Notes: a model not told the origin generated them from the letters alone. Shown: positions 1-42,780, counted from the stretch's first letter. The stretch is 42,780 bases of DNA from Enterobacteria phage mEp043 c-1 (NC_019706.1); one strand, 5' to 3'. Numbers and translations: made by a program.

Positions 1-501
1 GTGTTCACCATCATGGACCAGGAAATTGCCACTTTAAAACTCAATATCAACCAGCTGGCAGGGATAACCGGCGTACACCGTCAGACGGTTGCCGCGAGAC
101 TGAAAAATGTTGAACCTGCTCCAGGCAGCAACAGCAAGTTAAAGCTCTATCTGGTGACCGACATTCTGACCGAACTGATGATCCCTACCGTTTCGGCCAA
201 CATCGACGATATGCCCCCTTCTGACAGGCTGTCCCACTGGAAAGCAGAGAACGAGAGGCTGAAGTTCGAACAGGATACGGGGCAGTTAATACCCGCAGAT
301 GAAGTGGCGCGAGAATTCTCATTGATGGCGAAAGCCGTCGTCATGGTACTTGAAACCCTCCCGGATGTGCTCGAGCGCGACTGTGCTTTAACGCCTGCTG
401 CGGTAGTTCGTGTGCAAAGCGTTATCGATGATCTGCGCGACCAGATGGCGGAGAAGGTGCAGGACGCTGGAAAAGAGGAGGAGCAGCCTGAGGAGGACTG
501 A
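1..501 (+). CDS. Terminase small subunit (Nu1-position, HTH DNA-binding)
   Basis: 166-aa ORF immediately upstream of and overlapping the large terminase start (ATGA-type junction at 499-503); N-terminal helix-turn-helix-like segment; acidic C-terminus. Window begins at a GTG; an in-frame ATG at 13 is an alternative start. Confidence 0.6.
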   Translation: MFTIMDQEIATLKLNINQLAGITGVHRQTVAARLKNVEPAPGSNSKLKLYLVTDILTELMIPTVSANIDDMPPSDRLSHWKAENERLKFEQDTGQLIPADEVAREFSLMAKAVVMVLETLPDVLERDCALTPAAVVRVQSVIDDLRDQMAEKVQDAGKEEEQPEED

Positions 502-2603
502 TGGCAAAGCGGGCATCCGCCAGGGACATCCGCCGCGATGTTTCCGGTATTTTACGAGCCCCGCGTCGTATGCCGGTGGCCGATGCGGTCAGTACTTATA
601 TGCGCGTGCCAATGGGGGCGGGAAACTCAGTTCCGTGGGATCCGGATCTGGCACCCTATGTGATTGAGCCGATGAACTGTCTGGCATCGCGTGAATACGA
701 TGCGGTGGTGTTTGTGGGCCCAGCGCGAACGGGTAAAACCATCGGGCTGATTGACGGCTGGATCGTTTATAACATTGTCTGCGATCCGGCAGATATGCTT
801 GTAATTCAGGTATCTGAGGAAAAAGCGCGCGAGCATTCCAAAAAACGCCTGGACCGTACTTTTCGCTGTAGCCCTGAAGTTAAAACCCGGCTAAGCCCAA
901 GACGTAACGATAACAACGTCTACGACCGTACATTCCGCGCCGGTAACTATCTGAAGCTGGGCTGGCCATCCGTCAATATCATGTCGTCCTCGGACTATAA
1001 AAGTGTGGCGCTGACGGATTATGACCGCTTTCCGGAAGATATCGACGGGGAGGGGGATGCTTTTTCACTGGCATCGAAACGAACCACGACATTCATGTCC
1101 TCCGGGATGACGCTGGTTGAGAGCTCGCCCGGGAGGGATATCAGAGACACAAAATGGCGGCGCTCCACGCCCCATGAAGCCCCTCCGACCACCGGAATTT
1201 TATCGCTCTATAACCGTGGTGACCGCCGTCGTCTTTACTGGCCATGCCCGCATTGCGGCGAATATTTCCAGCCGGAAATGGACAATATGACCGGATACCG
1301 CGACAGCAGCGATCCTGTGCTTGCCAGCGAAGCGGCGTTTCTTCAGTGCCCTGCCTGTAAAGGCAGGATCACACCGGACATGAAGCGTGCGCTTAACATG
1401 AAATGTGTCTGGCTCCGGGACGGGCAAACCATCGACAGGAAAGGCCTGGTTAGCGGTGATGGCCGTCGTTCCCGTATTGCCTCCTTCTGGATGGAAGGTC
1501 CGGCAGCTGCTTACCAGACCTGGGCGCAGCTTATTTATAAGTTTCTGACCGCCGAGCAGGAATATGAATCCACGCGCAGCGAAGAAACCCTGAAGACGGT
1601 GATCAACACCGATTTCGGCAGGCCCTATTTGCCGCGGGCCAGCATGGAGCAGCGTAAAAGTGAATTGCTCGAGCAGCGTGCCGAAGAAGTCCCAAAACGT
1701 TCGGTACCCGATGGCGTGCAGTTTCTCACTGCGACCGTGGACGTGCAGGCCGGGCGCAACCGGCGCTTTGTTGTGCAGATTACGGGTTATGGAAGTATGG
1801 GTGAGCGCTGGATAGTTGACCGTTACAACATCCGGCATTCGCTGCGCTGCGACGGCAACGGGGAAAGCATTCAGGTGGATCCGGCGAGCTATCCGGAGGA
1901 CTGGGATCTTTTACTCACCGACGTCTTTGATAAAACGTGGCCACTCGCAGCTGACCCGTCAAAGGGCATGCGGCTGATGTCGATGGCCGTGGACTCAGGG
2001 GGTGAAGATGGCGTGACGGATAATGCCTACAAATTCTGGCGCAGATGTCGCCGTGAGGGGCTGGGTAAGCGTATCTATCTCTTCAAGGGGGACAGCGTCA
2101 GGCGCAGCAAACTTATCCAGCGAACGTTTCCCGACAACACGGGCAGATCAACGCGCCGCGCACAGGCGACGGGTGATGTGCCTCTTTATCTTCTCCAGAC
2201 CGATGCCCTTAAAGACCGGGTGAATAATGCGCTGTGGCGTGATTCACCCGGCCCTGGCTATGTGCATTTCCCCGCCTGGCTGGGCAGCTGGTTCTATGAC
2301 GAACTGACGTATGAGGAACGCTCGAATGAAGGGAAATGGAGTAAGCCCGGCCGGGGCGCAAACGAAGCATTTGACCTGCTCGTTTATGCCGACGCGCTCG
2401 CCATCCTTAGTGGTTACGAAAAAATCAAATGGCCGTCAGCTCCTGAGTGGGCACGGCGGGAAACGTGGATCGAGGACACGCAGACGGAAACTGGCGAAAT
2501 GCCATCCCCGCCGCCTGCGCCGAAATCTAAATCAAAACCAAAACGTGAGAAGCCCGTAACCGAGCAGGCTAATCCGTGGTCTTCGTCAGGAGGTTGGGTG
2601 TGA
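501..2603 (+). CDS. Terminase large subunit (lambda gpA family)
   Basis: 700-aa ORF, first large gene after the small terminase and directly upstream of the portal gene; size and position typical of gpA-type terminase. Confidence 0.85.
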   Translation: MAKRASARDIRRDVSGILRAPRRMPVADAVSTYMRVPMGAGNSVPWDPDLAPYVIEPMNCLASREYDAVVFVGPARTGKTIGLIDGWIVYNIVCDPADMLVIQVSEEKAREHSKKRLDRTFRCSPEVKTRLSPRRNDNNVYDRTFRAGNYLKLGWPSVNIMSSSDYKSVALTDYDRFPEDIDGEGDAFSLASKRTTTFMSSGMTLVESSPGRDIRDTKWRRSTPHEAPPTTGILSLYNRGDRRRLYWPCPHCGEYFQPEMDNMTGYRDSSDPVLASEAAFLQCPACKGRITPDMKRALNMKCVWLRDGQTIDRKGLVSGDGRRSRIASFWMEGPAAAYQTWAQLIYKFLTAEQEYESTRSEETLKTVINTDFGRPYLPRASMEQRKSELLEQRAEEVPKRSVPDGVQFLTATVDVQAGRNRRFVVQITGYGSMGERWIVDRYNIRHSLRCDGNGESIQVDPASYPEDWDLLLTDVFDKTWPLAADPSKGMRLMSMAVDSGGEDGVTDNAYKFWRRCRREGLGKRIYLFKGDSVRRSKLIQRTFPDNTGRSTRRAQATGDVPLYLLQTDALKDRVNNALWRDSPGPGYVHFPAWLGSWFYDELTYEERSNEGKWSKPGRGANEAFDLLVYADALAILSGYEKIKWPSAPEWARRETWIEDTQTETGEMPSPPPAPKSKSKPKREKPVTEQANPWSSSGGWV

Positions 2604-2815
2604 ATCCAGCAGATATTCAAAACATGATCGACAGCTACGCTGCAGCCGAGCTGTCTGTTCTGGAGGGGAAATCAATCACTTTCAACGGGCAGCAGATGAC
2701 GCTCGAAAACCTGTCGGAAATCAGAAAAGGCCGTCAGGAATGGGAGCGACGACTGGCTACGCTCAATAACAAACGCCGCGGGCGACCCGGCTACAGGCTG
2801 GCGAGGTTTGGATGA
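2600..2815 (+). CDS. Head-tail joining protein (gpW-position)
   Basis: Small ORF between terminase and portal; GTG at 2600 preceded by AGGAGG (2588-2593); stop overlaps portal ATG (ATGA at 2812-2815). Alternative starts at 2576 (GTG) and 2624 (ATG). Confidence 0.45.
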   Translation: MNPADIQNMIDSYAAAELSVLEGKSITFNGQQMTLENLSEIRKGRQEWERRLATLNNKRRGRPGYRLARFG

Positions 2816-4311
2816 GTTTTTTAGATGATGCGATAGGCCTGTTTTCACCAGGCTGGAAAGCCTCACGCCTGCGTGCCCGCGCAGTTATTAAGGCGTATGA
2901 GGCGGTAAAGCAAACGCGTACCCACAAAGCCCAGAAGGAAAATCGTTCAGCCGATCAGCTCAGCCAGATGGGGGCGGTTTCACTGAGGCAGCAGGCGCGC
3001 TGGCTGGACAACAACCACGATCTGGTGATTGGCGTTTTCGACAAGCTGGAAGAAAGGGTGGTGGGTGCGAAGGGCATCATAGTTGAACCGCATCCGATGC
3101 TGACTAACGGGAAGATAGCTAAAAAGCTGGCCACTGACATCCGCAGAAAGTGGGGCGAATGGTCCGTAAGACCCGATGTTACAACCCAGTTTACCCGCCC
3201 CATGCTGGAGCGGCTGATGCTGCGAACGTGGCTCCGGGACGGTGAGGTATTTGCTCAGCTGGTTCGCGGTACCGGAAATGGTCTTCAGCCGGTTGCTGGC
3301 GTGCCGTTCTGGCTGGAAGCGCTGGAGCCGGACTTCGTGCCGATGAACAGCGATGCCGCCACCCAGCTCAATCAGGGCGTTTTTGTCGATAACTGGGGGC
3401 GCCCGAAAAAATATCAGGTCTATAAAAGCCTGCCAGTATCCGGGCGTCAGTTCGATACCAAAGAGATAGATGCAGAAAACATGCTGCATCTCAAATTCAC
3501 ACGACGCCTGCACCAGACCCGCGGAACGTCTCTATTGTCAGGTGTTCTGATGCGTCTGAGCGCGCTGAAAGAGTACGAGGACTCGGAGCTTACTGCTGCC
3601 AGAATTGCTGCGGCACTCGGCATGTATATCAAAAAAGGCGACGGACAGAGCTTCGATTCTGATTCAAGCAGCGATGACCGCGAGCTGATGATTCAGCCCG
3701 GTATGCTCTATGACGAACTGCAGGCCGGGGAAGAAATCGGGATGATTAAATCCGATCGCCCGAACCCTAACCTCGAATCTTTTCGTAACGGACAGCTGCG
3801 TGCCGTGTCCGCCGGCAGTCGCCTCAGCTTTTCCAGCACATCCAGAAACTACAACGGAACGTACAGTGCCCAGCGGCAGGAGCTTGTCGAGTCAACCGAC
3901 GGATATCTGATTCTTCAGGACTGGTTCATCGGTTCAGTGACCCGGCCCATGTACCGGGCCTGGCTGAAGATGGCTATTGCTGCCGGAGAAATCAAGCTGC
4001 CGAGAGGCATCGATATGGACTCGCTTTATAACGCGGTTTATTCGGGGCCCGTTATGCCGTGGATTGATCCCGTTAAAGAAGCGAATGCCTGGAAAACGCA
4101 GATCCGCGGCGGTGCTGCTACTGAATCCGACTGGATACGTGCCAGCGGTCGCAACCCGGATGATGTTAAGTCACGCCGTAAAGCGGAGGTTGACGAGAAC
4201 CGTGAACAGGGACTGGTGTTTGACACCGACCCCGCCAATGATAAAGGAGGCACCAGTGCCGAAGCCAAAGAACCGGGCGCGCCACCGTCCGAAAGCCAGC
4301 GCAAAAAGTAA
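2812..4311 (+). CDS. Portal protein (gpB-like)
   Basis: 499-aa ORF following terminase and W in conserved head-gene order; acidic C-terminal tail. Confidence 0.85.
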   Translation: MSFLDDAIGLFSPGWKASRLRARAVIKAYEAVKQTRTHKAQKENRSADQLSQMGAVSLRQQARWLDNNHDLVIGVFDKLEERVVGAKGIIVEPHPMLTNGKIAKKLATDIRRKWGEWSVRPDVTTQFTRPMLERLMLRTWLRDGEVFAQLVRGTGNGLQPVAGVPFWLEALEPDFVPMNSDAATQLNQGVFVDNWGRPKKYQVYKSLPVSGRQFDTKEIDAENMLHLKFTRRLHQTRGTSLLSGVLMRLSALKEYEDSELTAARIAAALGMYIKKGDGQSFDSDSSSDDRELMIQPGMLYDELQAGEEIGMIKSDRPNPNLESFRNGQLRAVSAGSRLSFSSTSRNYNGTYSAQRQELVESTDGYLILQDWFIGSVTRPMYRAWLKMAIAAGEIKLPRGIDMDSLYNAVYSGPVMPWIDPVKEANAWKTQIRGGAATESDWIRASGRNPDDVKSRRKAEVDENREQGLVFDTDPANDKGGTSAEAKEPGAPPSESQRKK

Positions 4312-4324
4312 TTCGTGGTTCCGC

Positions 4325-6271
4325 ATGCAGGCCAGCAATAACAGCGAGGCCGACATTTTTATCTATGACGAAATCGGGTACTGGGGCGTAACGGCGAAAC
4401 AGTTCGTCAATGATCTCCGGGCACTTGGGGACGTCACCCACATCAACCTTTATATCAACTCGCCAGGTGGTGATGTCTTCGACGGTATTGCTATTTATAA
4501 CGCGCTGAAGCACCACGGCGCGGCGATTACCGTGCATATCGACGGTCTCGCGGCCTCCATGGCCTCGGTGATTGCGATGGTAGGCAATCCGGTCATCATG
4601 CCTGAAAACACGATGATGATGATCCATAAGCCCTGGGGGTTTGCTGGTGGTGACGCGAGCGATATGCGCGACTATGCAGATCTTCTCGACAAGGTTGAAT
4701 CCGTTCTTATCCCGGCTTATGCGCAGAAAACCGGAAAATCCACCGAAGAAATTGCGGCAATGCTGGAGGACGAAACCTGGATGAACGGCAGCGAGTGCCT
4801 TGAACTGGGTTTTGCCGACCAGGTGACACCATCCCTTCAGGCTATGGCCTGTATTCATTCAAAACGTATTGAGGAATTTGAAAAAATGCCAAAAAGCATT
4901 CGCAACATGATCACCCCGCCGCGCAACACTACCCAGCGTGACCCGGTTATTACCCAGCCTCAGGAACCGCAGGCAAAAACAGACCCGGCACCGGATGAAA
5001 ATGTGATCCGCGCGCAGGTGTTGGCTGAGCAGAAAGCCCGTGTTAACGCTATCGGCGATCTCTTTGCCATGTTCGGCAATAAGCACATGGAACTGCAGAA
5101 TCAGTGTGTGGCCGACCCTGATTGTTCCGTCGATAAGGCGAAAGATTTGCTGCTGGCAGAACTCGGTAAAACGGCCACGCCGTCCAATAAAACCACCCAG
5201 CCGCATATTCATGCGGGCAATGGTAACTTCGTCGCGGATGGTATTCGCCAGGCACTGATGGCGCGTGCCGGGTTCGAAGGTCAGGAGCGGGATAACGTTT
5301 ATAACGGTATGACGCTGCGCGAGTATGCGCGTATGGCCCTGACTGAAAAAGGTATCGGCGTGGCCAGCTACAACCCGATGCAGATGGTTGGCCTGGCGCT
5401 GACCCACAGCACCTCTGACTTTGGCAACATTCTGCTTGATGTTGCGAACAAAGCGCTGATTCAGGGCTGGGACGAGGCGCAGGAAACCTTCGAACAGTGG
5501 ACCAAAAAAGGCCAGCTGTCGGACTTCAAAACGGCGCATCGTGTCGGCATGGGTGGTTTCCCTTCTCTGCGACAGGTTCGCGAAGGGGCTGAGTACAAGT
5601 ACATCACTACCAGTGACAAAGGCGAAACCATCGCGCTTGCCACGTATGGTGAAATCTTCTCAGTAACCCGCCAGGCGATCATCAACGACGATCTGAACCA
5701 GCTTACCGACGTACCGATGAAGATGGGGCGCGCGGCGAAAGCAACGATTGGCGATCTGGTTTACGCCATTCTGACCAAAAACCCGAAACTCTCAGACGGA
5801 AAGGCGCTGTTCCATGCCGATCACAAGAACCTGAGCTCGGGCGCAATTTCTGTGGCCAGCCTGGACGAATCGCGCAAGCTGATGCGTCTGCAGAAGGAGA
5901 GGGAGCGAACCCTGAATATCCGTCCGGCCTACATGCTGGTGCCCGTCGCCCTGGAAACTCTGGCAAATCAGACCATCAAGTCGGCCAGTGTTAAAGGTGC
6001 AGACATCAATGCCGGGATCGTTAACCCTATCCAGAACTTTGCAGAAGTCATTGCCGAACCACGCCTGGATGAAGCTGATGCGAAAGCCTGGTATCTGGCT
6101 GCCGCGAAGGGCACCGACACCATCGAGGTCGCTTATCTCAACGGCGTCGACACGCCATACATCGATCAGCAGGAAGGCTTCACCACTGATGGTATCGCCA
6201 CGAAAGTGCGTATTGATGCCGGTGTGGCGCCGCTGGACTATCGCGGCATGACCAAATCCTCTGGTCAGTAA
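4325..6271 (+). CDS. Prohead protease (ClpP/S14-like) fused to a major capsid protein domain
   Basis: First in-frame ATG after the portal stop. N-terminal region has ClpP-like motifs (INSPGGDV, GLAASMAS, MIHKPWG); C-terminal about 330 aa resemble Mu gpT-type major head subunit. The track ORF 3977-6271 has a 5' extension overlapping the portal that is probably not translated. Confidence 0.8.
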   Translation: MQASNNSEADIFIYDEIGYWGVTAKQFVNDLRALGDVTHINLYINSPGGDVFDGIAIYNALKHHGAAITVHIDGLAASMASVIAMVGNPVIMPENTMMMIHKPWGFAGGDASDMRDYADLLDKVESVLIPAYAQKTGKSTEEIAAMLEDETWMNGSECLELGFADQVTPSLQAMACIHSKRIEEFEKMPKSIRNMITPPRNTTQRDPVITQPQEPQAKTDPAPDENVIRAQVLAEQKARVNAIGDLFAMFGNKHMELQNQCVADPDCSVDKAKDLLLAELGKTATPSNKTTQPHIHAGNGNFVADGIRQALMARAGFEGQERDNVYNGMTLREYARMALTEKGIGVASYNPMQMVGLALTHSTSDFGNILLDVANKALIQGWDEAQETFEQWTKKGQLSDFKTAHRVGMGGFPSLRQVREGAEYKYITTSDKGETIALATYGEIFSVTRQAIINDDLNQLTDVPMKMGRAAKATIGDLVYAILTKNPKLSDGKALFHADHKNLSSGAISVASLDESRKLMRLQKERERTLNIRPAYMLVPVALETLANQTIKSASVKGADINAGIVNPIQNFAEVIAEPRLDEADAKAWYLAAAKGTDTIEVAYLNGVDTPYIDQQEGFTTDGIATKVRIDAGVAPLDYRGMTKSSGQ

Positions 6272-6293
6272 AAAACAGTCCTGACAAACAGAC

Positions 6294-6312
6294 GCCCGTA
6301 AGGGCTTTTTTT
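6294..6312 (+). terminator. Rho-independent terminator/attenuator after the capsid gene
   Basis: GCCC-GTAA-GGGC hairpin followed by a T7 run, 23 nt after the capsid stop. A second stem-loop (CAGCCCC-GCAA-GGGGCTG, 6324-6341) sits just before the next RBS. Confidence 0.5.
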
Positions 6313-6353
6313 ATACCTGAAACCAGCCCCGCAAGGGGCTGAATGGAGAAGTT

Positions 6354-6680
6354 ATGGCTAAGAACTATGCGCAGGACGGGAAAACGATCCCTCTGGTAAA
6401 CGGCGGTGCAACCGATGTTCACAGCGGCGACCCGGTTGTTGTTGGAAAACTTATCGCGGTGGCAATTACCGATATCCCGGCTGGCGATACCGGGGACGGT
6501 TTTACTGAGGGTGTTTTCCTTCTGCCAAAAGTATCCGCAGATGCGGTTAATGCCGGGGCGCAGGTGTATCTGAAGGACGGCAAAATCACGATCGAAGAAA
6601 CGGACGCCGTTGCCGCGGGCATCGCCTGGGAAGATGCAGGGGCAAACACCACCGTTGTTGAAGTTAAGATCAATGCCTAA
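6354..6680 (+). CDS. Head decoration-like protein
   Basis: 108-aa Gly/Ala/Val-rich ORF with GGAG RBS, directly after the major capsid gene. Confidence 0.5.
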   Translation: MAKNYAQDGKTIPLVNGGATDVHSGDPVVVGKLIAVAITDIPAGDTGDGFTEGVFLLPKVSADAVNAGAQVYLKDGKITIEETDAVAAGIAWEDAGANTTVVEVKINA

Positions 6681-6948
6681 CCCCTTTGACCGGATGGCGG
6701 CGCGCATGGACGCGGCCACCATAAAAAAGATGGGAAAGACAGCGATCATCAATGGCAGCAGCTATGACGTTGTTCCAGCCGATCAACTCGAGGAAATGGG
6801 ACCATTGTCGGGAACAGGTACTTCGCTGGTGGTTTTCTCTGAGCTTTACCAGCCACGCCGAAACGACAGCGTCGACTACGACGGTAAGAACCTGACCGTT
6901 ACCCGCTATGACATGTTCAACGGAAAACCCCACATCCATCTCGAATGA
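6673..6948 (+). CDS. Head-tail attachment protein (FII-position)
   Basis: 91-aa ORF starting at an ATG that overlaps the upstream stop (6673-6680); lies between head and tail-completion genes. Confidence 0.45.
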   Translation: MPNPFDRMAARMDAATIKKMGKTAIINGSSYDVVPADQLEEMGPLSGTGTSLVVFSELYQPRRNDSVDYDGKNLTVTRYDMFNGKPHIHLE

Positions 6949-6957
6949 GGAGGCGCT

Positions 6958-7536
6958 ATGTCTGTGAAAGGACTGGAAAGGGCTATTCAGAACCTGAACA
7001 GCCTCAGCCGGTTAATCGTTCCTGAGGCAACCGCAAAAGCACTAAACCGGGTGGCCAGCAGAACGATAAGCCAGGGGAGCAAAGCTGTAGCGAAAGAAGC
7101 AACAGTTGATGATAACCGGAAAAAGGGACTTCCGGTTCGTCTGGTCCGCCAGCGTTCCCGTCTGCGCAAGGCTCGTCACGATCGCCAGGTCGCGTCGATA
7201 AAAATCAACCGCGGTAATCTTCCTGCGATAAAGCTCGGCACGGCGCGCGTCCGGCTCTCGCGTAAAAAAGGGGCCAGAAACGGAGCGGGCAGCGTCCTTA
7301 AAATCGGGCCCTATACCTTTCGTAACGCTTTTATCCAACAGCTCTCGAACGGGCGCTGGCAGGTCATGCGGCGCGTAGGTCAGGCCCGTTATCCGATTGA
7401 TGTGGTCAAAGTTCCTCTTGAGACACCGCTCACCGTGGCCTTCACCGCTATTTCAAAGCGCCTTATTGAAAGCGATATGCCCAAAGAACTTTCCGCAGCC
7501 CTGAAAAACCAACTGAGGATCCACCTGAAGCGATGA
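6958..7536 (+). CDS. Z: Tail completion protein Z
   Basis: 192 aa; strong RBS GAGGAGG; sequence resembles recalled lambda gpZ (AINRVAS, KRYPIDVVK, C-terminal PKEL...QLR motifs). Confidence 0.8.
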   Translation: MSVKGLERAIQNLNSLSRLIVPEATAKALNRVASRTISQGSKAVAKEATVDDNRKKGLPVRLVRQRSRLRKARHDRQVASIKINRGNLPAIKLGTARVRLSRKKGARNGAGSVLKIGPYTFRNAFIQQLSNGRWQVMRRVGQARYPIDVVKVPLETPLTVAFTAISKRLIESDMPKELSAALKNQLRIHLKR

Positions 7537-7934
7537 ACAGACACAGCGCAATTCGTGCAGCCATTCTGGCAAAACTGAAAGCCGAGATCACCGACACGGT
7601 CACCTGGTTTGACGGGCGCCCTGTTTTTCTTGAAGAGCAGGATCTCCCTGCCGTGGCTGTATACCTTTCTGACGCGGAGTACACCGGCGACTCGCTTGAC
7701 GAAGATTCGTGGCAGGCGGTTGTTCACATCGAGGTATTTCTTAAAGCCTCCAGCCCCGACAGCGCGCTTGATTCCTGGATGGAAGAGAAAGTGTATCCGG
7801 CAATGGCCTTCATCCCGGGTCTGACCGAACTGGTCGAGACGTTCACCCCGCAGGGTTATGACTATCAGCGGGATGATGAAATGGCCACCTGGGGTTCAGT
7901 CGATTTCACGTACTTAATCACCTATTCAATTTAA
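7533..7934 (+). CDS. U: Tail terminator protein U
   Basis: 133 aa; ATGA overlap with Z; resembles recalled lambda gpU (FDGRP, PAVAVYL..AEYTG, GYDY..DD, DFTY.ITY). Confidence 0.85.
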   Translation: MNRHSAIRAAILAKLKAEITDTVTWFDGRPVFLEEQDLPAVAVYLSDAEYTGDSLDEDSWQAVVHIEVFLKASSPDSALDSWMEEKVYPAMAFIPGLTELVETFTPQGYDYQRDDEMATWGSVDFTYLITYSI

Positions 7935-7943
7935 GAGGTACTT

Positions 7944-8687
7944 ATGCCTACTCCAAACCCGCTGGCCCCCGTGAAAGGTGCCGGTACCACACTCTGGCTT
8001 TACACCGGAACGGGCAACGCTTTCGCTAACCCACTCTCGGATATCGACTGGAACCGCCTGGCGAAAATTAAAGAGCTGACGCCGGGCGAAATGACCGCAG
8101 AATCGTATGACGACACTTACCTCGACGACGAGGATGCCGACTGGAACGCGACGGCCCAGGGGGCAAAATCTGCTGGCGATACCTCGTTCACCCTCGCCTG
8201 GAAGCCGGGCGAAGAAGGGCAAAAAGACCTTGTCGCATGGTTTATTGATGGCTCAGTACGTTATTACAAAATCAAATACCCGAACGGTACCGTCGACGTT
8301 TTCTGTGGCTGGTGCAGCAGCCTGGGTAAAGCCATTCCGGCAAAAGAGGTCATTACCCGTACAGCGAAAATCACCAATACCGGCAAGCCGGAACTGGCAG
8401 AAGAAAGCGGGACCCCGAATATCCCCGTGACCGGCGTTACGCTCGATAAAGCCACGGCAAGCGTGGTCGTCGGCGCAACCACAACGCTCAATGTGACGGT
8501 TAACCCTGCCAGTGCCTCAGATACCTCGTTCCGCGTGGCAACCTCCGACGGGGCAAAAGCAACGGTCACCGTTAGCGGCAACGCGATCACCGTCACCGGC
8601 GTGGCGGCAGGCACCGCTGACGTTATTGTTATGACCAGCGACGGTAATTTCGTTGCGGTCTGCAAAGTCACCGTAACTGCAGCGTAA
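7944..8687 (+). CDS. V: Major tail protein V with C-terminal Ig-like domain
   Basis: 247 aa; N-terminal half closely matches recalled lambda gpV ([18 protein letters not shown]); C-terminal Thr/Val-rich segment typical of an Ig-like fold. Confidence 0.9.
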
Positions 8688-8697
8688 GGAAGGACGC

Positions 8698-9138
8698 ATG
8701 TTTCTGAAAAAAGAGAAGTTCACCTGGCAAACAGAGTCCCTGACCATCTTCGAGCTGTCGGCCCTTCAGCGTATTGAGTTCCTCACGTTTATGGCAAATG
8801 AGGAGAAGGCCGTCAGCGCTGACAGCGATGGCATAAGCGATCAGGAAGTCACGACCCGGCTGATAGGTTCAAATATTCGCTGCGGTGCGCGCTTGATCGC
8901 GATGTCTTTGTGGCATAACGAGCCGGCCGGCACGGATGTGGAAACGTTGTATCAGCAGGTCCTGAGCAGCTGGCCGCCGGAGGCTATCGGCAAAGCCGAA
9001 ATGCAGGTCAAGCTACTATCAGGCATGTTATTCCCCGTTGAAGATGAGAAAGTTGATCATCAGGACGTGGAGGGTTTAACTGACTCCTCTGCTAACGAAG
9101 AATCCGTTACCGCGGAAAAGCCCTTGCCAGCGAGCTGA
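8698..9138 (+). CDS. G: Tail assembly chaperone G
   Basis: 146 aa; resembles recalled lambda gpG (ELSALQRIE, AMSLWHN); directly upstream of the tape measure gene. Confidence 0.85.
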   Translation: MFLKKEKFTWQTESLTIFELSALQRIEFLTFMANEEKAVSADSDGISDQEVTTRLIGSNIRCGARLIAMSLWHNEPAGTDVETLYQQVLSSWPPEAIGKAEMQVKLLSGMLFPVEDEKVDHQDVEGLTDSSANEESVTAEKPLPAS

Positions 9139-13834: not shown

Positions 13835-13835
13835 A

Positions 13836-36515: not shown

Positions 36516-36545
36516 AGGCCTGCTGGTAATCGCAGGCCTTTTTAT
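36516..36545 (+). terminator. Rho-independent terminator tR2
   Basis: AGGCCTGC-loop-GCAGGCCT hairpin followed by a T-run; matches recalled lambda sequence upstream of ninB. Confidence 0.75.
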
Positions 36546-36563: not shown

Positions 36564-37004
36564 ATGAAAAAACTAACCTTTGAAATTCGATCTCCAGCAC
36601 ATCAGCAAAACGCTATTCACGCAGTACAGCAAATCCTTCCAGACCCAACCAAACCAATCGTAGTAACCATTCAGGAACGCAACCGCAGCTTAGACCAGAA
36701 TCGAAAGCTTTGGGCTTGCCTTGGTGACGTCTCTCGTCAGGTTGAATGGCATGGTCGCTGGCTGGATGCAGAAAGCTGGAAGTGTGTGTTTACCGCAGCA
36801 TTAAAGCAGCAGGATGTTGTTCCTAACCTTGCCGGGAATGGCTTTGTGGTAATAGGCCAGTCAACCAGCAGGATGCGTGTAAGCGAATTTGCGGATCTAT
36901 TAGAGCTTATACAGGCATTCGGTACAGAGCGTGGCGTTAAGTGGTCAGACGAAGCGAGACTGGCTCTGGAGTGGAAAGCGAGATGGGGAGATCGGGCTGC
37001 ATGA
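36564..37004 (+). CDS. ninB: NinB recombination protein
   Basis: 146 aa from ATG 36564; near-identical to recalled lambda NinB (MKKLTFEIRSPAHQQNAIHAVQQILPDPTKPIVVTIQERNRSLDQNRKLWACLGDVSRQVEWHGRWLDAESWK). Confidence 0.95.
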   Translation: MKKLTFEIRSPAHQQNAIHAVQQILPDPTKPIVVTIQERNRSLDQNRKLWACLGDVSRQVEWHGRWLDAESWKCVFTAALKQQDVVPNLAGNGFVVIGQSTSRMRVSEFADLLELIQAFGTERGVKWSDEARLALEWKARWGDRAA

Positions 37005-37528
37005 CTATCAAATCAAATACGCCAGCACACGACAAGGACTGCTGGCAAACGCCGCTTTGGCTTTTTGATGCACTGGATATTGAGTTTGGATTCTGGCTGG
37101 ATTCGGCAGCGAGCGACAAAAATGCTCTGTGCGCTCACTGGCTAACTGAGGCTGACGACGCGCTAAATTCTGAGTGGATAAGCCACGGTGCAATCTGGAA
37201 TAACCCACCGTACAGCAATATCAGGCCGTGGGTGGAAAAAGCCGCTGAGCAGTGCATACAACAGCGACAGACGGTAGTGATGCTTGTGCCAGAGGATATG
37301 TCTGTCGGATGGTTCAGCAAGGCTCTGGAGAGTATTGACGAAGTTCGCATCATCACTGATGGACGGATTAATTTTATCGAACCATCGACAGGGCTGGAGA
37401 AGAAGGGAAACAGCAAAGGTTCCATGCTGCTGATTTGGCGACCGTTCATCAGTCCTCGACGGATGTTTACTACCGTATCCAAAGCGGCATTGATGGCGAT
37501 CGGGCAGGGCGTCAGGAGGGCAGCATGA
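37001..37528 (+). CDS. DNA N6-adenine methyltransferase (phage Dam-like)
   Basis: 175 aa from the ATG overlapping the ninB stop; catalytic NPPY motif (WNNPPYSN). Confidence 0.8.
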
Positions 37529-37707
37529 GACGACAGCGACGAAGTATCACCGACATCATCTGCGAAAACTGCAAATACCTTCCAACGAAACGCTCCAGAA
37601 ATAAACGCAAGCCAATCCCAAAAGAATCTGACGTAAAAACCTTCAATTACACGGCTCACCTGTGGGATATCCGGTGGCTTAGAGAACGTGCGAGGAAAAC
37701 AAGGTGA
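37525..37707 (+). CDS. ninE: NinE
   Basis: 60 aa; [23 protein letters not shown]...[14 protein letters not shown] matches recalled lambda NinE. Confidence 0.9.
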
Positions 37708-37874
37708 TTGACCCAAATCGAAGTTACGAACAAGGAAGTGTCGAGCGGGCTTTAACGTGCGCTCACTGCGGTCAGAAGCTGCATGTGCTGGAAGTTCACG
37801 TGTGCTCCGATTGCTGCGCAGAACTGATGAGCGATCCGAATAGCTCAATGTACGAGGAAGAAGACGATGAGTGA
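37704..37874 (+). CDS. ninF: NinF
   Basis: 56 aa with GTG start overlapping the ninE stop; [40 protein letters not shown] matches recalled lambda NinF. Confidence 0.8.
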
Positions 37875-38079
37875 TTACCTGAAATGGTATCTCTGCCACC
37901 GCTGGTTAATTAAGTTTGCTGTAAAAGACTGGATGACAGCGGATGCCAACAAGCTTAAACAACGAAAGGACTATTACTACGCCAGAATGAAGGAAAACTA
38001 CTGCTCAATCCGCACTCGCATATTTATTAAAAAAGACCTTCAGTCAATTCTTCAATTGCGAGGGAAGGTAAATGGCTAA
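37867..38079 (+). CDS. Hypothetical protein (70 aa, AT-rich)
   Basis: ORF overlapping the ninF stop and the next gene's start; Trp/Tyr-rich. Confidence 0.45.
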   Translation: MSDYLKWYLCHRWLIKFAVKDWMTADANKLKQRKDYYYARMKENYCSIRTRIFIKKDLQSILQLRGKVNG

Positions 38080-38362
38080 TCTACGCAAAGAAGCGCGCGG
38101 CAGAGAATGCCAGGTACGTATTTACGGCGTATGCAATGGCAATCCTGAAACTACAGTTCTGGCACATTACCGGATGGCTGGAATTTGCGGAACGGGAATG
38201 AAGCCTGACGACCTGATCGGTGCATGGGCTTGTAGTGCGTGTCACGATGAAATCGACCGACGCACCCATAATCTCGACAACAAAGACGCCAGACTTTACC
38301 ACCTCGAAGGCGTGATCAGGACGCAGGCGATACTGCTGAAGGAGGGGAAGATTAAGCCATGA
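38072..38362 (+). CDS. Cys/His-rich zinc-binding protein (nin region, DUF1364-like)
   Basis: 96 aa; RBS GAGGGAAGG; multiple Cys/His residues (C.VR.YGVC, C.TG, CSACHDEID); upstream of rusA. Confidence 0.55.
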   Translation: MANLRKEARGRECQVRIYGVCNGNPETTVLAHYRMAGICGTGMKPDDLIGAWACSACHDEIDRRTHNLDNKDARLYHLEGVIRTQAILLKEGKIKP

Positions 38363-38721
38363 ACGAATATCAGTTTGTGCTTCCATACCCGCCGTCGGTG
38401 AACACCTACTGGCGAAGACGGGGAAGCCAATACTACATCAGCGCTAAAGGCCAGAAATACCGAAAAGATGTACAGCAAATAATCCGCCAACTCAAGTTAG
38501 ACATTTTCACCAAATCACGACTCCGCATCAAAGTCATCGCAGACGTTCCAGACTCCCGCCGCCGCGACCTCGACAACATCCTGAAAGGTTTACTCGACTC
38601 CCTTATCCACGCCGGATTTGCGGAAGACGACGAGCAATTCGATGACATTCGTGTAATTCGTGGTGTGAAAGTACCAGGCGGAAGGCTTGGAATAAAAATC
38701 ACCGAACTGGAGAACGCATGA
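38359..38721 (+). CDS. rusA: Holliday junction resolvase RusA
   Basis: 120 aa; LPYPPS.N.YWR, RRRDLDN, GGRL..KITE resemble recalled RusA. Confidence 0.9.
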   Translation: MNEYQFVLPYPPSVNTYWRRRGSQYYISAKGQKYRKDVQQIIRQLKLDIFTKSRLRIKVIADVPDSRRRDLDNILKGLLDSLIHAGFAEDDEQFDDIRVIRGVKVPGGRLGIKITELENA

Positions 38722-38906
38722 ACGCCACAATTCAAACGATACCAGAGCTTCTTATCCAGACACGAGGCAATCAGACCGAAGTGGCGAGGATGCTTTCCTG
38801 CGCAAGAGGAACAGTGCTCAAGTACAACCGAGACAGCAAAGGCGAGCGTCACGTAATAGTTAACGGCGTCCTGATGGTCAAACAGGGCAAGAGGGGAAGA
38901 CCATGA
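38718..38906 (+). CDS. ninH: NinH
   Basis: 62 aa; KTIPE.L....GNQTEVAR.L.C.RGTV.KY resembles recalled lambda NinH. Confidence 0.8.
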   Translation: MNATIQTIPELLIQTRGNQTEVARMLSCARGTVLKYNRDSKGERHVIVNGVLMVKQGKRGRP

Positions 38907-39526
38907 GACTCGAAAGCGTAGCTAAATTTCATTCGCCAAAAAGCCCGATGATGAGCGACTCACCACGGGCTACGGCTTCTGACTCTCTTTCCGGTACTGA
39001 TGTGATGGCTGCTATGGGGATGGCGCAATCACAAGCCGGATTCGGAATGGCTGCATTCTGTGGCAAGCACGAACTCAGCCAGAACGACAAACAAAAGGCT
39101 ATCAACTATCTGATGCAATTTGCACACAAGGTATCGGGGAAATACCGAGGTGTGGCAAAGCTCGAAGGAAATACTAAGGCAAAGGTACTGCAAGTGCTCG
39201 CAACATTCGCTTATGCGGATTATTGCCGTAGTGCCGCGACGCCGGGGGCAAGATGCAGAGATTGCCATGGTACAGGCCGTGCGGTTGATATTGCCAAAAC
39301 AGAGCTGTGGGGGAGAGTTGTCGAGAAAGAGTGCGGAAGATGCAAAGGCGTCGGCTATTCAAGGATGCCAGCAAGCGCAGCATATCGCGCTGTAACGATG
39401 CTAATCCCAAACCTTACTCAACCAACCTGGTCACGCACTGTTAAGCCGCTGTATGACGCTCTGGTGGTGCAATGCCACAAAGAAGAGTCAATCGCAGACA
39501 ACATTTTGAATGCGGTCACACGTTAG
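38903..39526 (+). CDS. Q: Late antiterminator Q
   Basis: 207 aa; appears identical or nearly so to recalled lambda Q (MRLESVAKFHSPKSPMMSDSPRATASDSLSGTDVMAAMGMAQSQAGFGMAAFCGKHELSQNDKQKAINYLMQFAHK...). Confidence 0.95.
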   Translation: MRLESVAKFHSPKSPMMSDSPRATASDSLSGTDVMAAMGMAQSQAGFGMAAFCGKHELSQNDKQKAINYLMQFAHKVSGKYRGVAKLEGNTKAKVLQVLATFAYADYCRSAATPGARCRDCHGTGRAVDIAKTELWGRVVEKECGRCKGVGYSRMPASAAYRAVTMLIPNLTQPTWSRTVKPLYDALVVQCHKEESIADNILNAVTR

Positions 39527-39568
39527 CAGCATGATTGCCACGGATGGCAACATATTAACGGCATGATA

Positions 39569-39597
39569 TTGACTTATTGAATAAAATTGGGTAAATT
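39569..39597 (+). promoter_or_regulatory. Late promoter pR-prime with qut region
   Basis: -35 TTGACT (39569-39574), 17-bp spacer, -10 TAAATT (39592-39597); TTGACTTATTGAATAAAATTGGGTAAATTTGACTCAACGATGG matches recalled lambda pR-prime/qut. Confidence 0.8.
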
Positions 39598-39632
39598 TGA
39601 CTCAACGATGGATAAATGCACTAGTTAAATAA

Positions 39633-39661
39633 AGCCCTGAGTTAATAGCTCGGGGCTTTTT
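39633..39661 (+). terminator. Terminator in the pR-prime leader (tR-prime candidate)
   Basis: AGCCCTGAG-TTAATAG-CTCGGGGCT hairpin followed by a T5 run, about 55 nt downstream of the predicted start. Confidence 0.5.
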
Positions 39662-39811
39662 GCGTTTTAAGCACGGCCTTTCTGAAAGCACATCAAACCA
39701 AATACCAGACAGACAAAAATAATCACCTTATCCGCTGTGGCTACGGTGCGGTGTGCTTTGCTTTGCATAAAAGAAAACTAGCTCAATGTCTGGCTTCGTG
39801 AAAGCTGGTGA

Positions 39812-39845
39812 CAGGAGGTTGCGCTAACAACCTCCTGCCGTTTTG
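39812..39845 (+). terminator. Second terminator-like hairpin upstream of S
   Basis: CAGGAGGTTG-CGCTAA-CAACCTCCTG 10-bp stem followed by CCGTTTTG; matches recalled lambda sequence upstream of S. Confidence 0.5.
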
Positions 39846-39964
39846 CCCGTGCATATCGGTCACGAACAAATCTGATTACTAAACACAGTAGCCTGGATTT
39901 GTTCTATCAGTAATCGACCTTATTCCTAATTAAATAGAGCAAATCCCCTTATTGGGGGTAAGAC

Positions 39965-40288
39965 ATGAAGATGCCAGAAAAACATGACCTGTTAGCCGCC
40001 ATTCTCGCGGCAAAGGAACAAGGCATCGGGGCAATCCTTGCGTTTGCAATGGCGTACCTTCGCGGCAGATATAATGGCGGTGCGTTTACAAAAACAGTAA
40101 TCGACGCAACGATGTGCGCCATTATCGCCTGGTTCATTCGTGACCTTCTCGACTTCGCCGGACTAAGTAGCAATCTCGCTTATATAACGAGCGTGTTCAT
40201 CGGCTACATCGGTACTGACTCGATTGGTTCGCTTATCAAACGCTTCGCTGCTAAAAAAGCCGGAGTAGAAGATGGTGGAAATCAATAA
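39965..40288 (+). CDS. S: Holin S (dual-start holin/antiholin)
   Basis: 107 aa; appears identical to recalled lambda S except the penultimate residue; starts ATG-AAG-ATG giving Met1 and Met3. Confidence 0.95.
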
Positions 40289-40748
40289 TCAACGTAAGGC
40301 GTTCCTCGATATGCTGGCGTGGTCAGAGGGAACTGATAACGGACGTCAGAAAACCAGAAATCATGGTTATGACGTCATTGTAGGAGGAGAGCTATTCACT
40401 GATTACTCCGATCACCCTCGCAAACTTGTCACGCTAAACCCCAAACTCAAATCAACAGCCGCCGGACGTTACCAGCTTCTTTCCCGTTGGTGGGATGCCT
40501 ACCGTAAGCAGCTTGGCCTGAAAGACTTCTCTCCGAAAAGCCAGGACGCTGTGGCACTGCAACAGATTAAAGAGCGTGGCGCTTTACCGATGATTGATCG
40601 CGGTGATATCCGTCAGGCAATCGACCGTTGCAGCAATATCTGGGCTTCGTTGCCCGGGGCTGGTTATGGACAGTTCGAGCATAAGGCTGACAGCCTGATT
40701 GCAAAATTCAAAGAAGCAGGCGGAACGGTCAGAGAGATTGAGGTATGA
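40272..40748 (+). CDS. R: Endolysin R (lytic transglycosylase)
   Basis: 158 aa; near-identical to recalled lambda R. Confidence 0.95.
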
Positions 40749-41182
40749 GCAGAGTAACCGCGATTATCTCCGCTCTGGTTATCTGCATCATCGTCAGCCT
40801 GTCATGGGCGGTTAATCATTACCGTGATAACGCCATTACCTATAAAGAACAGCGCGATAAGGCCGCATTCATTATCGCTGACATGCAGAAACGTCAACGC
40901 AATGTAGCAGAACTCGACGCCAGATATACAAAGGAGCTTGCTGATGCTAACGCGACTATCGAAAGTCTCCGTGCTGATGTTTCTGCTGGTCGTAAGCGCA
41001 TGCAAGTCGCCGCCACCTGTGCAAAGTCAACGACCGGAGCCAGCAGCATGGGCGATGGAGAAAGCCCAAGACTTACAGCAGATGCTGAACTCAATTATTA
41101 CCGTCTACGAAGTGGAATCGACAGGATAACCGCGCAGGTTAACTACCTGCAGGAGTACATCAGGACGCAATGCCTTCGATGA
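40745..41182 (+). CDS. Rz: Spanin inner-membrane subunit Rz
   Basis: 145 aa; N-terminal about 35 aa match recalled lambda Rz ([33 protein letters not shown]), rest divergent. Confidence 0.9.
40938..41129 (+). CDS. Rz1: Spanin outer-membrane lipoprotein Rz1 (embedded in Rz, +1 frame)
   Basis: 63-aa ORF inside Rz; hydrophobic N-terminus with lipobox VSAC followed by a Pro-rich segment; exact start uncertain. Confidence 0.7.
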
Positions 41183-41475
41183 TAGCGATAATTCTACTCA
41201 TCATCCTTCACATCTGGCTCTGTAGACAGGGTGGTGATCACTTCTGGAGTGAATCCAGATTAAACATCTCATTGCTGATGCTTGAAGTTAAGCATATGGC
41301 GCGCGGCAAGGGGCTGCGTTGAGATAAGAGCCAGTTCATTACAAAGCCTATCTACGGGTGGGCTTGATAATGGATATCCCCGCAAGCGGATAATATGGTT
41401 TTTATCCCCTGCGGGGTATAAATAGGACTTGCAAATGCGTGGTTTATCATTTTGAAGCCAATGACAGGAGTGGGT

Positions 41476-41634
41476 ATGACACTTGAAGAACGAATTACAG
41501 CTTTAGAAAAGGCAGTCACATGCATTGTGAATGAAAAGCAAGAGGACACAACTGCCTTTGTTGATAAAATTATTCAGGAGATGCGTCAGTCCTCAGTATT
41601 TTCGCAGCTTCTAGAAAGGCCTCGTGAAGATTAG
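41476..41634 (+). CDS. Small hypothetical protein (52 aa)
   Basis: ATG with AGGAG RBS at 6-nt spacing; 3' end overlaps the convergent minus-strand ORF by 65 nt. Confidence 0.4.
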   Translation: MTLEERITALEKAVTCIVNEKQEDTTAFVDKIIQEMRQSSVFSQLLERPRED

Positions 41635-41830
41635 GGATGTTTTTAACACGTTCAGGATCAAGTTTTTCCTGGACAAATTTTGTCAACCCATCATATAAAT
41701 CTTTGTTCGGGTACAGCTCATTAACTGCTTTAATTAGTGCTCCAAAAGCAAGCTGATTTGCTATTTTTTGTACGGCTAATTCTTTTTCTAACTGCTCAAC
41801 CTTTTCTTTTAAACCAAAACCTTCTGACAT
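41570..41830 (-). CDS. Hypothetical protein (86 aa)
   Basis: ATG with AAGGAA RBS at 6-nt spacing; convergent with and overlapping 41476-41634. Confidence 0.5.
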   Translation of the reverse strand: MSEGFGLKEKVEQLEKELAVQKIANQLAFGALIKAVNELYPNKDLYDGLTKFVQEKLDPERVKNIPNLHEAFLEAAKILRTDASPE

Positions 41831-41959
41831 TTTTGATTCCTTATTCTGAGGTAATCAGCCATTACTCTTTATTAAGTGCGCCAGTGTCCCACCACCGACG
41901 GGCTGAATGCCTACATTAACCAGGGTTAAGACGAAACAACACCCTGATATTCAAACAGT

Positions 41960-41982
41960 AGCCGCCATCACGCGGCTTTTTT
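41960..41982 (+). terminator. Rho-independent terminator
   Basis: GCCGC-CATCAC-GCGGC hairpin followed by T6. Confidence 0.55.
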
Positions 41983-42022
41983 ATGCGCATCGCACGCGCA
42001 CATCGTAGAAAGTCTTTCAGCT

Positions 42023-42076
42023 GTGAGCCTGGGCAAACCGTTAACTTTCGGCGGCTTTGCCGTGCGACAGGCTCAC
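42023..42076 (+). promoter_or_regulatory. Long imperfect hairpin in the leader of the cos-proximal gene
   Basis: GTGAGCCTG-GGCAAA-CCG...CGG-C-TTTGCC-GTGCGA-CAGGCTCAC; about 18 paired bases with a 6-nt bulge; ends 20 nt before the ATG at 42096. Confidence 0.3.
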
Positions 42077-42095
42077 GCCTAAAAGGAAATAAATC

Positions 42096-42563
42096 ATGGG
42101 TCATAAAATTATCACGTTGTCCGGCGCGGCGACGGATGTTCTGTATGCGCTGTTTTTCCGTGGCGCGCTTCAGTCTGGTGATCTGCCAGCCAAATCTGGT
42201 GCTGCTGAGCTTCTAGAGCTGGGATTCGCTGAAACACGCCATACCGCGACGGAGTATCAAAAGGAAAATTATTACACCTTCCTGACCGCTGAAGGGCAGG
42301 AGTTCGCCATTAAGCACCTGGTGAATACGCGCTTTGGTGTTCCTGCTGGTGGTTATATTGGTGGCTCTGTAAATATTCAGTTTGGCCGGATAGAGAACGA
42401 CCCACGAAAAGGCTATGCCATCAATGTTGGCATCTGTCCCGAAATTAAGACCGGCGTGAAGCTATCCCCTGAAATGGTAAAAGCGATCTCAGATGTTGTG
42501 TCCGAGGAACTGAAGAAGAGTCTTCGGCCAGGTGGCACGATATGGTCAGCGCTGTCGCGATGA
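42096..42563 (+). CDS. Hypothetical protein (155 aa), cos-proximal
   Basis: ATG with AAGGAA RBS; last gene before the cos site; no motif recognised. Confidence 0.6.
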   Translation: MGHKIITLSGAATDVLYALFFRGALQSGDLPAKSGAAELLELGFAETRHTATEYQKENYYTFLTAEGQEFAIKHLVNTRFGVPAGGYIGGSVNIQFGRIENDPRKGYAINVGICPEIKTGVKLSPEMVKAISDVVSEELKKSLRPGGTIWSALSR

Positions 42564-42663
42564 ATGGACGTTTAGACGTCCAAATTGGTGCGAATCAAGT
42601 CGCATTCACGCAAATGATAATCATTATCATTTGCGGGTCCTCCCGGCAGGGTGGCCTGCCACG

Positions 42664-42675
42664 GGGCGGCGCGCT
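42664..42675 (+). other. cosN-like cohesive-end site
   Basis: GGGCGGCGCGCT flanked by ACG and CGCGGG, differing at 2 positions from recalled lambda cosN (GGGCGGCGACCT); upstream ATGATAATCATTATCA matches recalled lambda cosQ region. Confidence 0.7.
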
Positions 42676-42780
42676 CGCGGGAAACGGCTAGTTTTTCGGA
42701 TCCAGGGTCATCATCATCAAGTGCGCAGGTCTTTGATTTAATTAGAGGCCATTTTCGCAAGATGTCGAATCGTTCAAAAA

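Follow-up and report, generated by a model that had tools for sequence, protein, structure and literature searches.

The 42,780-nucleotide sequence of Enterobacteria phage mEp043 c-1 (NC_019706.1; positions 1 to 42,780, the whole of which is referred to here as the window) raises the question of whether a genome whose parts resemble several different lambdoid phages represents an undescribed phage, an artefact of assembly, or a phage that is already known. An initial annotation, made from the sequence alone, had described a lambdoid mosaic in which the immunity type was distinct and the head module was not that of lambda, with novelty implied. The mosaic proved correct in substance, and its pattern lies far beyond chance. 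With a probability of about 97%, the window comprises the entire genome (42,780 bp) of mEp043, a temperate lambdoid coliphage that is an ordinary mosaic with the gene order and logic of lambda. The window very probably represents the clear-plaque derivative mEp043 c-1 (NC_019706).

Both halves of the window were compared by megablast with 50,697 phage records, and PV340537.1 (Escherichia phage mEp043) was the 100% match for each; the left arm also matched Enterobacteria phage mEp213 (JQ182733). Alignment with PV340537.1 using blastn gave three collinear blocks at 100% identity that cover every base from 1 to 42780, in which window 1-18361 corresponds to PV340537.1 20724-39084, window 18160-22061 to 38979-42880, and window 22058-42780 to 1-20723. 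Because base 42780 of the window is followed by base 1 in PV340537.1, the window is a complete, circularly permuted genome. Only two differences separate PV340537.1 from it, one extra 96-bp repeat unit in gene J and a 4-bp duplication at the att-opened ends, and circular permutation aside the gene order is the same. PV340537.1 was opened at window 22058-22061, and the window was opened at the terS start codon, not at cos. The mosaic had been proposed with the proviso that no single described phage would be nearly identical to it along the whole length; PV340537.1 is such a phage. The mEp043-specific primers for quantitative polymerase chain reaction (qPCR) on cI, published with an 86-bp product (PMC3442831), match window 32446-32465 and 32511-32531 and give a product of that length. 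mEp043 c-1 (NC_019706) has been cited as a sequenced lambdoid phage (PMC4159516, PMC9836094), and a study of lambdoid mosaicism used it as one of its nine manually annotated model genomes (PMC9836094). Earlier records already cover the mEp043 genome and its mosaicism, the separate immunity group, and the resemblance of the head gene to Gifsy-2, and the features of the phage are all of familiar kinds. The c-1 sequence (NC_019706) has been public since about 2012, and the original lambdoid classification is reportedly that of Kameyama et al. in 1999.

Intergenomic similarities were obtained with a VIRIDIC-like calculation and were 100% to PV340537.1 (mEp043), 83.8% to mEp213, 26.3% to phi80, 12.1% to lambda, and 11.3% to P22. 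Under the genus criterion of the International Committee on Taxonomy of Viruses (ICTV), which is at least 70% nucleotide similarity over the genome length, and a species threshold of 95%, the value for mEp213 therefore places the two phages in the same genus, Aguilavirus (type mEp213), and in different species. The similarity to lambda of only about 12% and to P22 of 11%, together with an immunity cassette (31590-33070) that has no full-length match in all but one of the phage records, would suit an undescribed mosaic phage that merely shares modules with known ones. The one record, however, is PV340537.1, which carries the name of mEp043 and matches the whole window. Isolation, naming, immunity typing, and sequencing of mEp043 had all taken place earlier, so that the mosaicism, though real, is neither new nor unusual, and the idea of an undescribed phage is almost certainly wrong. 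Abrupt changes of the best-matching phage along the sequence, and a guanine-plus-cytosine (GC) content of about 55% in the late arm against 39-50% in the early one, could also point to an assembly chimera, or to a prophage region with host flanks, rather than to one real replicon. A two-level GC pattern is, however, typical of lambdoid phages; the independent deposit PV340537.1 has all junctions identical and closes the circle across the window ends, the separately isolated mEp213 shares positions 1-30190 at 99.93% identity, and the gene set is lambda-like and complete from cos to cos with no host genes, which makes an artefact of this kind extremely improbable.

That same identity to mEp213, continued at 99.8% over 38893-42780, is what would favour treating the window as a strain of mEp213 (species Aguilavirus mEp213) and not as a separate phage. 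The intergenomic similarity is nevertheless below the species threshold; the immunity and replication regions and part of nin differ or are unrelated, with cI, cro, and the primase-helicase lacking an mEp213 counterpart; and mEp043 was assigned experimentally to an immunity group of its own, with mEp213 in a different one (PMC3442831). Membership of the mEp213 species is thus hardly credible, and mEp043 stands as a phage in its own right. Some points do weigh against the identification and the interpretation built on it. The equation with c-1 is based on PV340537.1, the literature, and the primers rather than on a direct alignment with NC_019706. The clear-plaque lesion of c-1 was sought in cI, Cro, cII, and cIII and was not pinpointed; prophages carry the same cI and Cro, and phage Sf101 has the same cII and cIII. 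Substitutions unique to the window were observed at 31626 (centre of the left operator OL2), 32782 (between the right operators OR2 and OR1), and 33166 (cII leader, near the predicted pRE start), and these are the only candidates for the lesion, indistinguishable from ordinary divergence. Promoter and operator roles are assigned by analogy with lambda, and the recombination mechanism is taken from the established model of modular exchange.

The gene order of the window is that of a lambdoid phage (cos, head, tail, att, int, rec, N, imm, replication, nin, Q, lysis), and both the N/nut and the Q/qut antitermination circuits can be recognised in the sequence. Lambda shares this order and the regulatory logic, as well as N, the nut boxes, PreS, NinB, NinE, Q, pR'/qut, S, and R, but only 15% of the window is alignable with it at the DNA level, and it differs in the heads, the tail tip, int/att, recombination (Erf in the window, Red in lambda), immunity, the helicase loader, NinH, Rz, and tR'. 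The part shared with mEp213 comprises the late arm, att-int-xis, and the early-left region as far as PreS, and then Q through lysis to cos; mEp213 has a different immunity cassette, a different O, and a DnaB-type helicase, differs partly in nin, where it has NinG, NinI, and a lambda-type NinH, and carries an extra N-like segment. Phage phi80 resembles the window in the tail genes from V to cor, in parts of stf, and in the region upstream of cos, and differs in its lambda-type heads (S49 protease, D, E), int/att, Red-type recombination, immunity, replication, and Q. The Salmonella prophage Gifsy-2 has terS, terL, a small open reading frame (ORF), a lambda-family portal, a fusion of protease, scaffold, and major capsid protein, and two small ORFs in the same order, but identity is moderate, no DNA match reaches 85%, and the remaining genome is unrelated. 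HK97 shares Erf, Kil, Abc2, and the nin genes including RusA and NinH (95-100%), and has its own heads, tails, and immunity and a lambda-type int. Sf101 shares cII, O, the primase-helicase, N, and cIII, yet it is a P22-like podovirus with another int and another cI. P22 itself is similar in the thrW attP core (46 bp), Int, Xis, Erf, Abc2, and Rz, and differs in its podovirus morphogenesis genes, immC/immI, the gene 12 helicase, and the presence of gene 24 instead of lambda N.

The resemblances proposed in the initial annotation held to different degrees. Likeness to lambda was borne out at the amino acid level for N (92%; 92.9% at the nucleotide level), Q (100%), S (99%), and R (98.7%), and also for pR', since pR'/qut is identical up to 39611, although tR' differs. 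The nin genes, likewise taken to be near-identical to lambda, are so in NinB (98.6%) and NinE (94.8%) and borderline in NinF (87%), whereas NinH is only 56% identical to its lambda counterpart and 100% identical to that of HK97. For the nut sites the claim was good for both boxB sequences and the boxA of nutR, which are identical to lambda, but the boxA of nutL has one change and the DNA around nutR is only about 65% identical. P22-like integration and recombination genes are present, with amino acid identities to P22 of 54% for Int, 42% for Xis, 74% for Erf, and 92% for Abc2, but Erf is 100% identical to HK97 Erf. The corrected donor types are HK97 for ninH, erf, and the remainder of the rec module, phi80 for the tails, and Gifsy-2 for the heads. 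The initial annotation had not noted that the tails are phi80-type, that HK97 and Sf101 are nearest to the window in the rec and nin modules, or that the replication module is identical at the protein level to that of Sf101.

Homology breakpoints against lambda, P22, HK97, Sf101, and mEp213 coincide at small conserved functional elements. They were located at 22032 (P22; start of the attP core), 27108-27114 (HK97, Sf101, P22; start of the common rec module), 30190 (lambda, HK97, Sf101, mEp213; 5' edge of PreS), about 30900-30950 (end of N), 31585-31594 (lambda, mEp213, Sf101; nutL/pL/OL edge), 33058 (Sf101, mEp213; end of cro, before nutR, where homology resumes), 36487 (lambda, P22; helicase stop codon, 29 bp before the tR2-like hairpin), 37869 (lambda, P22, Sf101, mEp213; end of ninF), and 38893 (lambda, Sf101, mEp213; start of Q). 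This coincidence supports tR2 and att as conserved boundaries between modules, as had been proposed, whereas the junction that had been named tL1 is actually tL2a/PreS, corresponding to lambda 33924-34011 between ea10 and ral. Co-infecting phages and resident prophages would have exchanged modules through homologous or homeologous recombination at short conserved linkers that flank self-contained functional units, with selection for functional units after the exchange. The cI and cro genes would move together with their operators, as has likewise been reported (PMC9836094).

Such movement can be followed for the immunity cassette (OL, orf104, cI, OR, cro). Apart from mEp043 itself, the best phage match to positions 31590-33070 has 24% coverage at 71.5% identity and lies in the S24 domain, but the cassette was found at 95-99.5% identity in 52 of 5426 complete E. 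coli genomes. One carrier is a P22-like prophage of E. coli PA45B (NZ_CP021288.1) in which the flanks are quite different, and the cassette therefore moves as a unit. This prophage (locus 5100-25481) contains the same cI/cro/operator cassette and the same O/primase-helicase, a PBSX-type terminase, a torI-type excisionase next to dsdC, and two tRNA genes between Q and the holin gene. Here the immunity and replication modules have plainly moved into a phage with another kind of virion.

The cI repressor of the mEp043 immunity type (32041-32727, minus strand) combines an S24 (LexA-like) autocleavage domain at its C-terminus with a helical N-terminal domain that is not recognised by Pfam. Peptidase_S24 matched amino acids 104-204 only, with 63.9 bits against a Pfam cutoff of 23.3, and this domain places cI in the LexA/cI-type class of self-cleaving repressors. 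In PHROG searches the protein was assigned to PHROG 4 'transcriptional repressor' (2e-31), 5736, and 27486, and the phage repressor PHROGs cover the N-terminal part. An identical cI protein was found in E. coli prophages. No tblastn match was obtained to lambda or P22, and comparison with the PDB sequences, which include the N-terminal domains of the lambda, 434, and P22 repressors, gave no match at E<=0.05 and only chance-level ones above it. The AlphaFold2 single-sequence model had a mean predicted local distance difference test (pLDDT) score of 40, unusable for a fold search, and gave a mere hint of four helices in residues 3-63. The cro gene (32836-33066, plus strand) is specific to this immunity type, belongs to PHROG 35 (E=8e-16), and has a weak Pfam YdaS match; Cro had no match in lambda, P22, phi80, HK97, Sf101, or mEp213. 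An immunity unlike that of lambda and P22, as originally proposed, agrees with the finding that cI and Cro are without similarity to lambda or P22 proteins or to any PDB chain.

The operator pattern first suggested for this cassette, TTACCnnnnGGTAA, is real; it occurs exactly at 32747 and 32787 and with one mismatch at 31595 and 31620. Five matches with at most one mismatch were counted in the window against 0.56 expected, and none of 100 shuffles reached five. The pattern is better written as TTACCT-N2-AGGTAA. The OR region (32734-32803, no strand assigned) contains OR3 (32747-32760, one mismatch to this pattern), a degenerate OR2 (32762-32775, three mismatches), and OR1 (32787-32800, no mismatches); the pL and OL region (31592-31676, minus strand) contains OL1 (31595-31608) and OL2 (31620-31633), each with one mismatch. 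Spacing in OR is asymmetric, in that the centres of OR3 and OR2 are 15 bp apart, so that the two sites nearly abut, and those of OR2 and OR1, like those of OL1 and OL2, are 25 bp apart. At the expected position of OL3 (31653-31676) there is a split site whose half-sites, TTACCT at 31653 and AGGTAA at 31671, lie 12 bp apart; this N12 spacing in place of N2 amounts to one extra helical turn. The pattern TTACCT-N2-AGGTAA is absent from lambda, P22, phi80, HK97, Sf101, and mEp213. Two E. coli prophages have it alongside this cI, with variation confined to the two central bases of OL2. Direct reading of the lambda operators and of the P22 OR region showed them to be unrelated to those of mEp043, and the 434 operators (ACAA-N6-TTGT) are presumably of a different family. 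The immunity of mEp043 would thus appear not to be of the lambda, P22, or 434 type.

Promoter-like hexamers were identified for pL (candidate TAGACA-17-TATATT), pR (candidate TTGATT-17-TAAACT), and pRM (candidate TTTACC-16-TAGAAT, with a leaderless cI). They would put OL1 and OR1 over the -10 elements of pL and pR, and OR2 next to the -35 element of the leaderless pRM. By analogy with lambda, the 14-bp palindromes TTACCT-N2-AGGTAA overlapping pL and pR would be the binding sites of cI dimers, with OR2 abutting the -35 of leaderless pRM, and RecA-stimulated self-cleavage of the S24 domain of cI would lead to induction. Because the N-terminal domain of cI is invisible to Pfam and PDB sequence searches, and because the operators are unusually short, perfect palindromes with a near-abutting OR3/OR2 pair and split OL3 half-sites (N12), an uncharacterised mode of operator recognition was also considered; it is improbable. 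If true, with an N-terminal domain of cI that departs from the usual helix-turn-helix or a split site that cI engages by some novel means, the lambdoid switch would have a form not described before.

Directly downstream of cI, in the position of rex, lies orf104 (31730-32044, minus strand), which encodes a small predicted membrane-anchored protein with an N-terminal hydrophobic segment and is followed by a strong intrinsic terminator (31702-31718). It was assigned to PHROG 10450 (unknown function; E=1e-53) and had no Pfam, NCBIfam, or PADLOC match. The protein is conserved in the E. coli PA45B prophage with one amino acid change, and PGAP leaves orf104 unannotated wherever the cassette occurs in E. 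coli prophages. The gene may be expressed from the prophage and serve in exclusion.

The head module (1-6948) has amino acid identities of 44-71% to Gifsy-2. It begins, on the plus strand, with terS (1-501; Pfam DUF1441) and terL (501-2603), whose products are 48% and 71% identical to Gifsy-2 TerS and TerL; TerL is 24% identical to lambda A, and both genes are identical to mEp213 genes 001 and 002. The portal gene (2812-4311, plus strand) is of the lambda family (Pfam Phage_portal_2, E=5e-82), with 64% amino acid identity to the Gifsy-2 portal. The use of a ClpP-protease/capsid fusion in the head, claimed from the outset, was confirmed by CLP_protease (2e-40) and Phage_capsid_4 (6e-60) domains in a single gene at 4256-6271 (plus strand), the true start of which may be at 4325. 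The 671-amino-acid product joins a ClpP-like prohead protease (amino acids 19-191) through a linker or scaffold-like stretch to a major capsid domain (361-668), and it scored 994.7 bits against a cutoff of 475 with the NCBIfam model NF045540, 'ClpP-like prohead protease/major capsid protein fusion'. It is 62% identical over 97% of its length to Gifsy-2 STM1034.3n, and to judge from its sequence the gene is a single uninterrupted ORF of the Gifsy-2 'tripartite' type, the capsid gene of which is said to have been described by Effantin et al. in 2010. The heads of mEp213, which are identical here, were described as Gifsy-2-like with fused protease and coat genes, and the mEp213 head proteins themselves have not been studied to date, according to the same source (PMC12315714). 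A putative cos cohesive end, GGGCGGCGCGCT (42664-42675, plus strand), matches exactly the 12-nt overhang inferred for mEp213 and LLS (PMC12315714).

The tail shaft and tip genes Z, U, V, G, T, H, M, L, K, and I (6958-15165, plus strand) are phi80-type from V onward, with amino acid identities to phi80 of 95% for V, 81% for G, 96% for T, 59% for H, 99% for M, 100% for L, 98% for K, and 99% for I; the DNA is 96.7% identical over 11491-15165. From V to cor most products are 81-100% identical to those of phi80, with H as the exception and J at 87%. The T frame, which is -1 relative to G, is open from 9096 (region 9096-9138), and an A-AAG motif lies near 9118. The G/T frameshift site reads GCG-GAA-AAG, not the lambda G-GGA-AAG heptamer, and is a non-canonical slippery site (A-AAG lysine slip). 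The central tail fibre gene J (15207-18887, plus strand) carries a perfect 96-bp (32-codon) tandem repeat at 18160-18361, present in 2.1 copies in the window and in mEp213 and in 3.1 copies in PV340537.1, which makes the repeat number polymorphic in the C-terminal portion of this host-specificity protein; the difference between the two mEp043 deposits could be an assembly difference. The superinfection-exclusion gene cor (19975-20208, plus strand), which blocks FhuA, has a product 100% identical to phi80 Cor; cor+ mEp phages that depend on FhuA are known from the literature. In the side tail fibre (stf) and tail fibre assembly (tfa) region (20269-21806, plus strand), Stf has 64% identity to its HK97 counterpart and, along half of its length, 94% identity to phi80, and Tfa is 38% identical to HK97 Tfa.

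The attP core (22032-22077, plus strand) corresponds to the 3' part of tRNA-Thr (thrW) and is identical to P22 attP in all 46 bp; in mEp213 the attP is annotated as 'prophage attachment site (type CP4-6), similar to thrW'. A tRNA scan of the whole window found no tRNA, the thrW fragment in attP being too short to be called. The integrase (22092-23252) and excisionase (23129-23476) genes lie on the minus strand (22092-23476). The integrase matches Pfam Phage_integrase (3e-34), and its identity to P22 Int extends over 98% of the length; the integration module is, by these similarities, of the P22/thrW type. A hairpin with a perfect 15-bp stem was observed at 21835-21870, between tfa and attP and about 170 bp left of the att core, and could be a late-operon terminator or, read leftward, a sib-like retroregulator of int. 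In PV340537.1 the integrase is annotated as a 98-amino-acid fragment although the 386-amino-acid ORF is intact, and the automatic annotation of that record mislabels the protease-capsid fusion as 'terminase protein', Erf as 'Bet', and orf322 as 'TolA'.

The recombination and early-left module (27267-29097, minus strand) comprises abc2, orf127, erf, orf56, kil, and cIII and is HK97/Sf101-type. Erf (Pfam ERF, 6e-44) is 99% identical to its Sf101 counterpart, Abc2 and Kil are 94% and 98% identical to those of HK97, and cIII is 100% identical to that of Sf101. Further on, between orf322 and orf53 in a position that corresponds to the lambda ea10-ral gap, an 88-nt block (30103-30190, minus strand) that ends in the terminator tL2a is identical in 84 of 88 nt to lambda 33924-34011. 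It aligned with lambda, HK97, Sf101, and mEp213, and homology to all four stops at its 5' edge, 30190. For the window copy the folding energy is -30.5 kcal/mol (z = -4.9), and the structure has a hairpin at its end and a U7 tail. In lambda, this locus is the ~88-nt Hfq-dependent small RNA LPR1/PreS, whose 3' end is tL2a and which activates translation of host dnaN (bioRxiv 10.1101/2024.10.31.621285). By its sequence and position the block at 30103-30190 is a predicted PreS/LPR1 homologue, with expression, Hfq binding, and dnaN activation shown for lambda only; it is unannotated in the mEp043 and mEp213 records. Rfam models applied to the whole window at gathering thresholds gave no match, and PreS, oop-like, and 6S-like RNAs were not recognised by the curated families. 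The lambda-type antiterminator gene N (30926-31252, minus strand) encodes a protein 99% identical to Sf101 N, and nutL (31521-31551, minus strand) consists of boxA TGCTCTTAA, one change from lambda, and boxB GCCCTGAAGAAGGGC, identical to lambda, in a region whose DNA is 97.9% identical to lambda 35489-35583. A PADLOC search of ten accessory ORFs, including orf104 and orf322, returned nothing credible and no defence genes, and Pfam and NCBIfam searches of the accessory ORFs found Ead/Ea22 and YbcO domains only.

In the early-right region, nutR (33075-33106, plus strand) has boxA CGCTCTTA and boxB GCCCTGAAAAAGGGC. It is followed by cII, orf48, an O-type initiator gene, and a primase-helicase gene (33183-36486, plus strand), all four of whose proteins are 100% identical to those of Sf101; a replication module >90% identical to that of mEp043c-1 has been reported for Sf101 (PMC4159516). 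Pfam domains Toprim_2, AAA_25, and DnaB_C were found in this module, and a Toprim/DnaB-like primase-helicase (34606-36486; 626 amino acids, Toprim plus DnaB-like/AAA_25) stands in place of lambda P. The N-terminal half of the O-type initiator is about 49% identical to lambda O, and the origin lies inside the initiator gene, with four 19-bp iterons (33992-34077) and then an AT-rich stretch. Right after the helicase stop codon lambda and P22 homology begins, upstream of a tR2-like intrinsic terminator (36516-36539, plus strand).

The following genes, ninB, a dam methylase gene, ninE, ninF, orf70b, a ybcO-like gene (Pfam YbcO), rusA, and ninH (36564-38906, plus strand), have an HK97-type arrangement, with amino acid identities to HK97 of 99% for NinB, 99% for Dam, 98% for NinE, 95% for NinF, 98% for orf96, and 97% for RusA. 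The late regulatory segment (38903-39659, plus strand) contains Q (38903-39526), pR'/qut (39569-39611), and a tR' (39631-39659) unlike that of lambda. The lysis genes (39965-41182, plus strand) encode the S holin, the R transglycosylase, and Rz with embedded Rz1 (40944-41129, lipobox VVSAC); Rz is P22/HK97-type, with identities of 92% to P22, 95% to HK97, and 57% to lambda.

The module map of mEp043 is thus corrected to include phi80-type tails, HK97-type rec and nin modules, and an Sf101-type replication module, with PreS/tL2a instead of tL1 as a junction. The breakpoints at attP, PreS, the nut sites, tR2, and gene ends fit the classical modular-exchange picture of lambdoid evolution.

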